DNA from: Candidatus Zambryskiibacteriota bacterium
Lineage (GTDB): Bacteria; Patescibacteriota; Minisyncoccia; Phycocordibacterales; DATDWN01
Assembly (NCBI GenBank): GCA_009694965.1
Contig: SIBV01000002.1
Span: 1-60,045, forward strand
Direction of reading: 5' to 3'
DNA length: 60,045 bases
Shown here: in pieces, positions 283 through 4,140 of the stretch
Layout of the letters: every line of letters begins with the position of its first letter
Position numbering within the stretch: the stretch's first letter is position 1
Notes under the pieces: generated by a model
The model's database searches: none
The model's input: only the letters and a program-made list of their open reading frames with translations
What the model was told of the DNA's origin: nothing
Translations under genes and position numbers: made by a program

Positions 283-1098
283 TTAATAATTTTTATAAAA
301 ATATAAATTTACTGAAATGAGCGAAAACATAATAAATGAACCAACAAATGCTAGATTATATAGTCCAAATTGAATCGCACTTAAAGCATAAGAAAATGCA
401 AATACAGTGTAAATCATTATCGGTATAAGGAAAATGGGTTTGTTTAAAGGTAAAAACTTTTGAGGATAAAAATATTCAAACAATCGAAATGTGGCAGTAA
501 CAACTATAGTAACGATGAACCAACCGACAAAATTTCCCAGGGGCACTCCAAAATAAGCTCCTCCATGTAGCCAAACCCATGCCCCAGCTTTAACTTGGAT
601 AGGATCCATAAATAAATCTATGGTTGTGACGGTCAAACCATCTCCTACTATAAGCATAGCCAATAAAAACAATGCGGGGTTATTTTTATTTGGTTTATTT
701 TTATTAAACCAATACAAAAACGAATTTGTAATAGAGTATCCTAAATAAATAAAGAATATCCAATATAGGATTATTAGGAAAGGAACTCCAAAAACTAGTT
801 GCATTTTTAAGTTATAAATATACTCTCCTCCAAAAAATGTACCAGAGGAGAGGCCGTAGATTTCAAAAAATAACCCCATCAAACTTGCAAGAATAATAAA
901 AAATAAATTTCTGGGAATACTTAGTGTGTGAAAGGCATATAAAATTAATACAAAAAGTGGAAGATAGGTCGGAAGGATTATTCTGAAAAGGGAATTGTTA
1001 AAGAGTTGAAAATGAAACAATATACCAAAGATATTAAGTAAAGCCGTAAACAAATAAAGGTAAAAAATATACCAAATAGTTTTTTCTTCATTTTTCAT
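283..1098 (-). CDS. polytopic membrane protein, carotenoid-biosynthesis-protein-like (DUF422 / Caroten_synth type)
   Basis: 271-aa ORF with many hydrophobic segments. GTFFGGEYIY and FGVPLGNFVGWF resemble the family signature motifs as I recall them. Confidence 0.65.
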   Translation of the reverse strand: MKNEEKTIWYIFYLYLFTALLNIFGILFHFQLFNNSLFRIILPTYLPLFVLILYAFHTLSIPRNLFFIILASLMGLFFEIYGLSSGTFFGGEYIYNLKMQLVFGVPFLIILYWIFFIYLGYSITNSFLYWFNKNKPNKNNPALFLLAMLIVGDGLTVTTIDLFMDPIQVKAGAWVWLHGGAYFGVPLGNFVGWFIVTIVVTATFRLFEYFYPQKFLPLNKPIFLIPIMIYTVFAFSYALSAIQFGLYNLAFVGSFIMFSLISVNLYFYKNY

Positions 1099-2886: not shown

Positions 2887-3040
2887 TTAATAATACATAC
2901 ACTGTAATTCCGCTGTGGCCAACCAGGCTGGCTTTCCGAACTTGTGAAGTGGGGTAATGAGATTGGTTTGAGTATAAAATGTTTAGAAGCAATGATACAA
3001 GCAGCTCCGTTGGATAGAGGATGTTAGAACCTGTTTTAGA

Positions 3041-3077
3041 TAAAAAGAAACCCGCCTCCGTAAGGATTTGGGTTTCT
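3041..3077 (-). terminator. rho-independent terminator of the 3098-3325 gene
   Basis: Minus strand reads gaaaccc-N16-gggtttc followed by ttttt. Confidence 0.6.
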
Positions 3078-3097
3078 CGGTAGAGACAGATTGGTGG

Positions 3098-3325
3098 TTA
3101 TCTGTAAGCCAGAAAAGTACCTTCGTACTTTCCTTGGTTGTATTCGTCAGCACAGGTAACCAAGTTCGGAGATTTGAACTTCTCCGAGCAAGGTGCCTGC
3201 CTCTCTGTCGTCGTTGCTCGTACGAAATTGTGTGTCCAACCGAGTGACGCCTGATACCAAGCGCCTCCGACAATGGTGCACACAAGAAGTGCAAGAATGG
3301 TTGCAAGCTTCTTACCGTTGGGCAT
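3098..3325 (-). CDS. small secreted or membrane-anchored protein (75 aa), GC-rich island A
   Basis: GGAGA SD 10 nt upstream of the ATG at 3325 (MPNGKKLATILALLVCTIVGG...). N-terminal hydrophobic anchor, two Cys in the mature part. Has its own promoter and terminator. Confidence 0.6.
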   Translation of the reverse strand: MPNGKKLATILALLVCTIVGGAWYQASLGWTHNFVRATTTERQAPCSEKFKSPNLVTCADEYNQGKYEGTFLAYR

Positions 3326-3348
3326 AGATATTTGTTCTCCTGTTTTCA

Positions 3349-3377
3349 ATCATATCACGACATAAGTACGATGTCAA
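3349..3377 (-). promoter_or_regulatory. sigma70-type promoter TTGACA-N17-TATGAT
   Basis: Minus strand: TTGACA (3372-3377), 17-nt spacer, TATGAT (3349-3354). The -35 starts 7 nt after the tRNA 3' end. Confidence 0.55.
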
Positions 3378-3383
3378 GTTTTG

Positions 3384-3697
3384 CTCCGCGGGTAGGGATC
3401 GAACCTACGACCAGTCGCTTACATTTGTTCCAAAGTTGCCTTTGGCATGGACTATATCATTATCCCTCTTGCGAGTAGGATATGGGGCGCTTCGCCTACT
3501 CACTTTCGTGACGGCTACTCTCTTTCGAGATAGTCTCTACACCTTCCCATGATTTTACTTGCTGTATTATCTTGGGCTTGGCTCGGGATTGTCCACATGG
3601 GAGTTCCCCGAATTCACCTCATTTTTCATCCTAAATTACTTTAGGAAGCTGCTGTACTTAGCAACAGGCGACTGCTCTACCACTGAGCTACCGCGGA
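3384..3697 (-). tRNA. tRNA-Asn(GUU) interrupted by a group I intron in the anticodon loop
   Basis: Exon 1 (3664-3697): TCCGCGG TA GCTCAGTGGTAGAGC A GTCGC CTGT. Exon 2 (3384-3421): TAA GCGAC TGGTC GTAGGTTCGATCCCTAC CCGCGGA G. Joined, they give a full cloverleaf with a 7-bp acceptor stem, loop CUGUUAA and discriminator G. CCA is not encoded. Confidence 0.85.
3422..3663 (-). ncRNA. group I intron (IC3-like, tRNA-intron type), ~242 nt, no ORF
   Basis: Contains GAATTCGGGGAAC, CCCGAGCCAAGCCC and GGGAAGGTGTAGAGACTATC. These closely resemble the J3/4-P4, P6-P7 and P7-P3 cores of the Azoarcus and cyanobacterial tRNA introns as I recall them. Ends in G (...ACAAATG). Splice sites are ambiguous by 1 nt. 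Confidence 0.75.
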
Positions 3698-3816
3698 ATG
3701 CTGTATTTATTTTAATCAAATAAACACATAAAGATGATACCAAAAACGGTAAAGAATGCAATTATGAGAGCTTTTGTTATACTTACTTATTCAAAGAAAA
3801 ATAATATAATAAAAAT

Positions 3817-4140
3817 ATGGATCTATCAAATAAAAAATGTATACCTTGTGAAGTAGGTGGAGTTGCTCTTAAGCCGGAAGAAGTTGCAATATTTTCTAGT
3901 GATCTTTTAAATTGGGAAGTTTTAGAAAATAAGAAGCTTTTTAGAAAATTTAAATTTAAAGATTTTAAGGAGTCAATAACTTTTGTAAATAAAGTGGCAG
4001 AAATTGCAGAAAAAGAAGGACATCACCCAGATATTGGTATAAATTACAATGAAGTAAATATTGAATTAACTACTCATGCGGTCGGAGGACTTACAGAGAA
4101 TGATTTTATTTTGGTGAGTAAAATAGATAAGATTATTTAA
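3817..4140 (+). CDS. pterin-4-alpha-carbinolamine dehydratase (PCD/DCoH)
   Basis: 107 aa with an EGHHPD motif and typical PCD length and layout. Confidence 0.85.
   Translation: MDLSNKKCIPCEVGGVALKPEEVAIFSSDLLNWEVLENKKLFRKFKFKDFKESITFVNKVAEIAEKEGHHPDIGINYNEVNIELTTHAVGGLTENDFILVSKIDKII

Follow-up and report, generated by a model that had tools for sequence, protein, structure and literature searches.

A group I intron with IA2-like architecture splits the anticodon of a tRNA-Asn(GUU) gene in a Parcubacteria-type bacterium

The 60,045-nucleotide (nt) stretch of DNA analyzed here (the window; contig SIBV01000002.1, assembly GCA_009694965.1, Candidatus Zambryskiibacteriota bacterium) carries on its minus strand, at 3697..3384, a split tRNA gene whose two halves are separated by a 242-nt insert at 3663..3422. 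Judged from sequence, this locus very probably represents a tRNA-Asn(GUU) gene that is interrupted yet functional, in a Parcubacteria-type bacterium of the Candidate Phyla Radiation (CPR), with predicted catalysis, expression and essentiality. The insert has the features of a group I intron located between tRNA nt 35 and 36, and its architecture resembles that of the phage-type subgroup IA2.

Results

A split tRNA-Asn gene with one splice solution

Read from 3697 to 3384, the minus strand starts with TCCGCGG-TA-GCTC-AGTGGTA-GAGC-A-GTCGC-CTGT, continues with the 242 nt and ends with TAA-GCGAC-TGGTC-GTAGG-TTCGATC-CCTAC-CCGCGGA-G. The 34-nt 5′ half (3664..3697), which closes with GTCGC-CTGT, supplies the 5′ strand of the acceptor stem, the D arm, the 5′ strand of the anticodon stem and C32 U33 G34 U35. 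The 38-nt 3′ half (3384..3421) opens with TAA-GCGAC and supplies U36 A37 A38, the 3′ strand of the anticodon stem, the variable loop, the T arm, the 3′ strand of the acceptor stem and the discriminator G73. The gene contains no CCA, since G73 is followed by CAAAAC, and a CCA-adding enzyme would therefore be needed.

Default ARAGORN reported zero tRNAs across the whole 60-kb window, and neither it nor Rfam found a further tRNA there. Once the 242 nt had been deleted, ARAGORN recognized tRNA-Asn(GTT) with a canonical cloverleaf. In the covariance-model search that an earlier note on this DNA had proposed, the window matched the Rfam family RF00028 (Intron_gpI) with 66.7 bits (gathering score, 50) and an E value of 9.3e-15, and no other Rfam family reached its gathering score in the 60 kb. 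The RF00028 alignment assigns P1 and P2 wrongly and for that reason overruns the 5′ splice site, extending upstream to 3731. An independent assembly from another sequencing run (Logan SRR8561391, L001) contains the identical 242-nt insert, which shows that the insert is not an assembly artifact or a chimera.

We searched for splice solutions under group I rules, which demanded that the 5′ splice site follow a U, that a guide made of G plus the reverse complement of the three exon bases preceding that U lie within the first 45 nt of the intron, that the intron end in G, and that the ligated exons form a legal cloverleaf with a 7-nt anticodon loop. Exactly one solution was found in the window, tRNA-Asn(GUU) with the intron (3422..3663) between nt 35 and 36. 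Enumeration of every U...G deletion that leaves a legal tRNA, without the guide rule, returned many spurious anticodons, and it was the addition of this rule that made the enumeration decisive. The ligated exons restore the anticodon loop CUGUUAA with the junction CUGU|UAA. At the 5′ splice site, the window and all homologues in our alignment A1 (35 of 35; described below) have the U35·G wobble, and the terminal guanosine at the 3′ splice site (ωG, 3422) is likewise invariant (35/35).

Close relatives carry the corresponding empty site. In L282, whose TypA is 96% identical to that of the window, an uninterrupted tRNA-Asn(GTT) agrees with the ligated exons predicted here at 71 of 73 positions, and both differences belong to one compensatory anticodon-stem pair. 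The two BLAST high-scoring segment pairs that cover the exons (window 3663-3699 for the 5′ exon and 3379-3421 for the 3′ exon) abut at a single base of L282. In a further relative, L288 (TypA, 89%), the intron measures 246 nt and shares 88% identity with that of the window, and the ligated exons of L288 are identical at 73 of 73 positions to the intronless tRNA-Asn of L287 (TypA, 88%). Both intronless orthologues, L282 and L287, read CTGTTAA. These empty-site genes fix the boundaries of the intron and show that it is optional. When the spliced tRNA was compared with a phage collection, the 25 best records matched it over at least 99% of its length, with 80-84% identity in the annotated ones; among these 25, every annotated feature under the match was a tRNA-Asn, and the rest are unannotated there.

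The earlier note had assembled a cloverleaf from two halves 242 nt apart, leaving the strand unstated, and had placed in its tRNA-Asn(GUU) anticodon loop a group I intron spliced as CUGU|UAA. The cloverleaf is present, on the minus strand, and the intron is borne out by RF00028, the splice rules and the empty sites. The motifs GAATTCGGGGAAC, CCCGAGCCAAGCCC and GGGAAGGTGTAGAGACTATC that it pointed out do lie in the intervening sequence, which ends in G, and the motifs that it considered common to this intron and the Azoarcus-type intron are real. Escherichia coli K-12 asnT has U1-A72, G73 and the loop CTGTTAA, as it had stated. ARAGORN with intron detection, a further check that it suggested, finds the insert but sets it one base early and calls Thr(GGU).

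A covarying P1-P9 fold

A P1-P9 model was derived on the window and then projected onto A1, for which 35 distinct tRNA-Asn precursors were aligned by MAFFT without structural information; the distal P5, P6b, P7.2 and P8 regions are under-aligned in A1. Standard pairs fill 90.8% of the cells, compared with 76.7 ± 0.4% in shuffles and 37-45% when partners are slid by 1-3 columns. Compensatory double changes occur in 51 of the 88 pairs, and on no measure did any of 500 shuffles come up to the real alignment. Pairing reaches 97-100% in the four tRNA stems, all of which covary, and 85-100% in the intron helices. These helices include the conserved, pseudoknotted P3-P7 core with P4-P6 and P8, in which P3, P4, P5, P6a and P8 have compensatory changes; besides the core, P2, P7.1, the base of P7.2 and P9 covary.

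All helices are given on the minus strand. P1 (3649..3667) joins exon and intron: C32-U35 of the exon (3667..3664) pair with the guide GCAG (3652..3649), which puts U35·G at the 5′ splice site, and the first two intron nt are paired with the two bases that lie 5′ of the guide. No variation occurs in the four exon pairs (35/35), and the adjacent pair, formed by intron nt 1, covaries through five standard forms (CG 12, AU 10, GC 10, GU 2, UA 1). P2 (3629..3646) is a hairpin with a GUAA tetraloop and compensatory changes in six of seven pairs. P3 is formed by AUGAGGUG (3615..3622), which pairs with 3489..3482, the 3′ strand being CGCCCCAU (3482..3489); two of its pairs covary. P4-P5-P4′ (3583..3611), with AA as J4/5 and CAAU as J5/4, is 99% paired and has three covarying pairs. 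P6, P6a and P6b occupy 3542..3581, with P6b as an 11-nt lineage-specific extension.

The 5′ strand of P7, G-A(bulge)-GACUA (3531..3537), pairs with 3454..3449. The 3′ strand, UAGUCC (3449..3454), is preceded by AAUGAUA as J8/7, and GATATAGTCC is invariant in A1. All six P7 pairs are invariant in the 35 sequences and so neither support nor contradict the model; from homology with P7 of Tetrahymena and Twort, this helix is presumed to bind guanosine. Next come, at 3494..3530, the hairpin P7.1 (3530..3519; UCUC-GAAA-GAGA), a G-U-A linker (3518..3516) and the hairpin P7.2 (3515..3494; GCCGUCAC-GAAA-GUGAGUAGGC), each hairpin with a GAAA loop. Three of four P7.1 pairs and three of three pairs at the base of P7.2 covary, and AGUA is invariant. 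The P8 hairpin (3462..3481) has a GCAA loop, a 2-nt bulge and five of six pairs covarying, with a distal part that MAFFT aligned poorly. The 3′ end of the intron (3422..3448) holds P9.0 (3448-3447 with 3424-3423), the P9 hairpin (3445..3430; GCAA loop; five of six pairs covarying) and ωG at 3422. P9.0 consists of 2 bp directly before the terminal G and covaries at both (AU 33, GU 1 and GC 1; CG 25 and UA 8).

A thermodynamic centroid fold recovers P2, P4-P6, P7.1, P7.2, P8 and P9 (z = −2.5). Where the family is at least 90% conserved, the window intron departs from it three times, namely in a compensated P3 pair, in a U-to-C change that leaves an A·C mismatch in P3 and in a peripheral P6b insertion. 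We see no sign of decay in the sequence of this copy.

IA2-like architecture with IC3-type motifs

The earlier note had called the intron IC3-like, and its architecture speaks against that label. In approximately 100 canonical tRNA introns (Leu-UAA, Arg-CCU and CAU) among the matches listed in the scans described below, P7 runs straight to P3′ with no hairpins, whereas 37 nt (P7.1-GUA-P7.2) lie between P7 and P3′ in the window intron, a layout that departs from IC3. According to Kong et al. 2012 (PMC3428280), a G-U-A sequence linking P7.1 to P7.2 distinguishes subgroup IA2, and in the window intron P7.1, GUA and P7.2 are all present, with both helices covarying. We assign the intron by its architecture as IA2-like, with the proviso that its J6/7-P7 sequence is of the IC3 type (GUAGAGACUA as in IC3, not GCAACGACUA).

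The Twort orf142 intron 2 (AF132670), a subgroup IA2 intron whose ribozyme crystal structure was reportedly determined by Golden et al. in 2005, arranges its elements in the order seen in the window intron, with P7.1, the G-U-A linker and P7.2 among them. It reads ACUAU-UCCGAUAGGA-AGUAG-GG where the window reads ACUAU-CUCGAAAGAGA-GUAG-CC, and the two share a GUAA L2, a GNRA L9 and the J8/7-P7′ sequence GAUAUAGUC. In the Twort ribozyme, P7.1 and P7.2 wrap the guanosine-binding pocket (PMC1995217). In a crude global alignment, Twort gave the best pairwise score among the characterized introns compared (152, with 71% identity over 194 columns); IC3 introns scored lower (106-130), although they had been chosen for a 21-nt motif common with the window intron. 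Twort and other IA2 introns differ from the window intron in location, since they sit in phage protein-coding genes and not in a chromosomal tRNA gene, and the window intron, unlike Twort, is devoid of a P9.1/P9.2-type 3′ extension.

Bacterial tRNA (IC3) introns are, like the window intron, small (200-250 nt) group I ribozymes without an open reading frame (ORF) in the anticodon loop, with P1 formed from anticodon-loop nt and GNRA loops in L2 and L9. The motifs AAUUCGG.GAA, CCGAGCCAAGC and GAAGGUGUAGAGACU are shared with Azoarcus-type copies (L009, L055, L060 and L114), and the tRNA-Leu intron, like that of the window, interrupts the anticodon itself. The window intron differs from the IC3 tRNA introns in its tRNA-Asn host, in its 35/36 site and in the 37-nt P7.1-GUA-P7.2 insertion; the named hosts of the tRNA-Asn intron are CPR bacteria, in contrast to the Proteobacteria and Cyanobacteria that host the IC3 tRNA introns.

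A blastn search of the locus against 50,697 phage records gave no match at an E value of ≤1e-5, and the likeness to phage introns is therefore one of motifs and architecture. The motif AAGGTGTAGAGACTAT together with P7.1 and AGTA occurs in 38 IMG/VR viral contigs (L243-L280), in none of them within a tRNA gene. In the five viral contigs checked, the upstream genes encode a DEAD/SNF2-type helicase, DNA polymerase III alpha, a T7-like RNA polymerase and the large subunit of ribonucleotide reductase.

Two loci outside tRNA genes were recorded alongside. A Lachnospiraceae metagenome-assembled genome (MAG; JAGAKD010000294.1, L065:3900-4500) has an intron with a P7.1 hairpin, ATCTCGAAAGAGAGTAG, identical to that of the window; its host is a PHP/DNA-polymerase-III-alpha gene of this Firmicutes MAG, possibly in a prophage. 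In the Methanosarcinaceae archaeon MAG JAIPUR010000020.1 (L082, minus strand, approximately 1640-1673), a group I core motif in which one hairpin separates P7 from P3′ lies outside tRNA genes, with an ORF directly upstream.

Relatives in other genomes and signs of mobility

We scanned GTDB genomes (one per species) with the J6/7-P7 motif and metagenomes with a motif specific to the architecture of the window intron. Each scan returned at least 120 matches, and the patterns bias the samples toward copies with the exact J6/7-P7 motif. Most of the GTDB matches listed are classical tRNA introns (Leu-UAA, CAU and Arg-CCU), and at least eight are tRNA-Asn loci with an intron at the same site, in Saccharibacteria, Staskawiczbacteria, Nomurabacteria, Parcubacteria and Paceibacterota. 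The metagenome scan added at least about 36 tRNA-Asn cases and at least about 31 tRNA-Phe(GAA) cases. At least 40 further tRNA-Asn genes thus carry a homologous intron at the same site, in CPR bacteria wherever the organism is named. The host tRNA, which the earlier note had thought unusual, is so with respect to the literature but is common in CPR genomes.

The tRNA-Phe(GAA) introns form a sister family with the same P7.1/P7.2-type intron, inserted after U33 (GGACU|GG...G|GAAAAUCC). They were found in the genome contigs L067, L079, L113 and L121, in L077, where the 5′ exon is cut off, and in about 31 of the loci L123-L242. Named hosts are CPR bacteria (Taylorbacteria, Ryanbacteria and Saccharibacteria), and L067 comes from a MAG titled Bdellovibrionales. 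Several of the canonical introns without P7.1 in the GTDB sample also appear to occupy tRNAs beyond the classical four, in L112 (Vibrio agarilyticus), L046 (Rhodothermaceae), L034 and L008 (Pyrinomonadaceae, Sphingomonas), L029 and L042; the candidate hosts include Arg(UCU) and Lys(CUU/UUU), besides ambiguous Thr(GGU)/Arg(ACG)/Gln cases, with putative splice sites.

Across its 242 nt the window intron has only short spurious ORFs and no credible one, in agreement with the earlier note, and hence no homing-endonuclease ORF. Three relatives with an intron at the same tRNA-Asn site, L040, L199 and L211, contain in the P1 loop an ORF that is roughly 100-130 codons long and shows the HNH-type pattern CxxC...HH...CxxCH. 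It spans intron nt 37-330 in L199 and 33-330 in L211, and in L040 about 394 nt lie between the 5′ exon and the core; the reading frame continues into the guide sequence and P2. In a Pfam scan of the L199 and L211 ORFs, that of L199 matched HNH with 22.8 bits (cutoff, 21.4), and that of L211 matched no Pfam family at an E value of ≤0.01. The P1-loop ORF may encode a homing endonuclease specific for the tRNA gene.

At the identical site, the window and L288 have the intron and L282 and L287 do not, which makes it a presence/absence polymorphism. The HNH ORFs of relatives and the alleles with and without the intron fit a homing family in which most copies, including that of the window, have lost the endonuclease, and from these sequences we infer that the window intron is an optional, formerly mobile element. 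The tRNA-fMet intron of Synechocystis (I-Ssp6803I) likewise belongs to a tRNA-gene group I family in which some members encode a homing endonuclease that targets the intronless anticodon region (PMC1995217). I-Ssp6803I is a PD-(D/E)XK enzyme, whereas in the tRNA-Asn relatives the P1-loop ORF is of the HNH type and the window copy has no such ORF.

Genomic neighborhood

The window is an ordinary chromosomal segment with genes that include typA, truB and hisS; from ORF size and order, it probably also holds rpoB and rpoC. The closest named relatives of its TypA (85-89% identical) are MAGs of Patescibacteria, Parcubacteria, Minisyncoccia, Paceibacterota and Zambryskibacteria, and this kinship identifies the host as a Parcubacteria-type CPR bacterium. 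The tRNA-Asn genes of the window (3384-3697) and of L282 (1413-1487) lie in the same neighborhood, a few kb upstream of a response-regulator/VanY/TypA block, relative to which their orientation is opposite between the two.

Directly downstream of the tRNA gene, at 3349-3377 on the minus strand, is the best sigma-70-like match of the region (TTGACA-17-TATGAT with an upstream TG, 11/12), which faces small ORFs at 3098-3349 and 2983-3306. The tRNA-Asn region is flanked by a gene for a CruF/Caroten_synth-family membrane protein (283-1098, minus strand; weak NCBIfam matches) and one for a pterin-4a-carbinolamine dehydratase (3817-4140, plus strand), although a CPR genome is expected to be minimal in metabolism.

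Discussion

The locus suggests the following path from gene to tRNA. Transcription of the minus strand would yield a precursor of approximately 315 nt, in which the 242-nt insert would fold as a compact group I ribozyme (P1-P9.0/P9 plus an IA2-type P7.1-P7.2 clamp) while the acceptor, D, T and anticodon stems form around it and leave the tRNA body intact. The guide GCAG would pair with C32-U35 of the anticodon loop, and free guanosine or GTP bound in P7 would attack after U35, at the U·G wobble. P9.0 would then dock the terminal G (3422) in the same guanosine site, and attack of U35 on the 3′ splice site would join U35 to U36, restoring the loop CUGUUAA and the anticodon G34-U35-U36. RNase P and a CCA-adding enzyme would complete the tRNA.

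Several observations weigh against this account. P10 amounts to at most 1-2 bp and is essentially absent; with so short a P10, exon register would probably be kept mainly by the anticodon stem, as Zaug et al. reportedly described in 1993 for exon alignment in Anabaena pre-tRNA-Leu. P3 of the window contains one A·C mismatch where 33 of 35 family members have A-U. Its closest relative, L288, has the same mismatch, and its presence in this 88%-identical intron makes it look tolerated. Upstream of the tRNA gene there is only a weak consensus match to a promoter-like element (3829..3801). In BLAST searches of E. coli genomes, the best matches of the spliced tRNA were partial ones to tRNA-Lys and tRNA-Thr (74-79% coverage), which shows that the tRNA body alone is not isotype specific and that the assignment to Asn rests on the anticodon and the orthologues.

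A nearly absent P10 and a mismatched P3 would also suit an intron that does not truly self-splice and whose excision in vivo requires a host protein (a chaperone or maturase-like factor). Many group I introns do need proteins in vivo (Hausner 2014, PMC3984707). However, no candidate cofactor gene is linked to the locus, and the ribozyme is compact, with GNRA loops in L2, L7.1 and L9 plus L7.2, and with the P7.1-P7.2 clamp. In these features it resembles the Twort intron, which self-splices in vitro. We consider an obligatory protein partner unlikely.

Somewhat harder to sustain is the view that splicing has been lost and the intron is a decaying relic, in a tRNA pseudogene whose function is covered by another tRNA-Asn gene elsewhere. 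The P3 mismatch and the missing homing-endonuclease ORF could be read in this way, close relatives thrive without the intron, and the visible portion of the genome is 60 kb, so that a second copy may lie elsewhere. Against this, among the catalytic-core positions with at least 90% conservation across the family, all but one base are intact, and the mismatch at that base persists in a copy (L288) that has diverged by 12%. The exons match a functional-looking orthologue at 71 of 73 positions, and their sole change is compensatory. CPR genomes, moreover, are small and usually have single tRNA copies. A relic is decidedly improbable on these grounds.

It is very hard to see the gene as a tRNA-Thr, with the insert one base earlier (anticodon GGU) or, in relatives, two bases earlier (UGU). 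The intron mode of ARAGORN (-i) gives the former, and relatives that end in GUG|UAA allow an alternative ωG. The Thr(GGU) placement breaks the ωG rule and contradicts the guide pairing and the orthologues, and we rejected it. The alternative sites leave U or A rather than G at the 3′ end of the window intron, GCAG pairs with CUGU with its wobble on U35 in 35 of 35 sequences, and P9.0 covaries with the two bases directly before the chosen ωG; the empty-site genes, in which the intronless orthologues read CTGTTAA, already refute it. Chance resemblance or an assembly chimera has nothing in its favor beyond the source being a metagenome assembly and is next to impossible given the Rfam E value of 9e-15, the identical locus in an independent assembly and more than 40 homologous loci with covariation.

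We rate the tRNA-Asn intron as mechanistically ordinary; what it extends is the host range, the insertion sites and the ribozyme subclass of tRNA introns, with practical consequences for the annotation of CPR tRNAs. Reviews and surveys name four bacterial tRNA hosts (PMC1995217; PMC8450103; PMC3984707), and tRNA-Asn is absent from the published list of "four different tRNA genes" (Haugen 2007, PMC1995217), as the earlier note had indicated, and so is tRNA-Phe. Lui et al. 2021 (PMC8172020) note in a brief remark that the group I introns carried by CPR tRNAs make these tRNAs hard to detect. The literature that we searched, with incomplete coverage, describes neither tRNA-Asn nor tRNA-Phe as a host, and it gave no account of the 35/36 site or of tRNA genes with IA2-type introns. 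The classic hosts Leu, fMet, Ile and Arg are thus joined by Asn and Phe, and the known insertion sites by one that separates the second anticodon nt from the third. A phage-type IA2-like ribozyme, besides IC3, can reside in tRNA genes, which links the introns of phage protein genes with those of cellular tRNAs.

According to its authors, tRNAscan-SE was not built for the detection of group I introns (PMC8450103). Given this design and the blank result of default ARAGORN, CPR tRNA-Asn and tRNA-Phe genes that seem "missing" may be so through an annotation artifact, which would distort inferences about genome completeness and codon usage. The compact 242-nt ribozyme, the natural alleles with and without it and the HNH-bearing relatives offer a ready experimental system for homing into tRNA genes.

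For the family as a whole, we lean slightly toward a broader proposal, that the CPR harbor a widespread and undescribed lineage of IA2-like (P7.1-GUA-P7.2), phage-type introns, which colonized tRNA-Asn(GUU) at 35/36 and tRNA-Phe(GAA) after U33 and spread by HNH homing endonucleases that recognize anticodon regions. If this is true, two probably single-copy tRNAs in many ultrasmall genomes would need a ribozyme to mature and would be listed as missing by standard pipelines.

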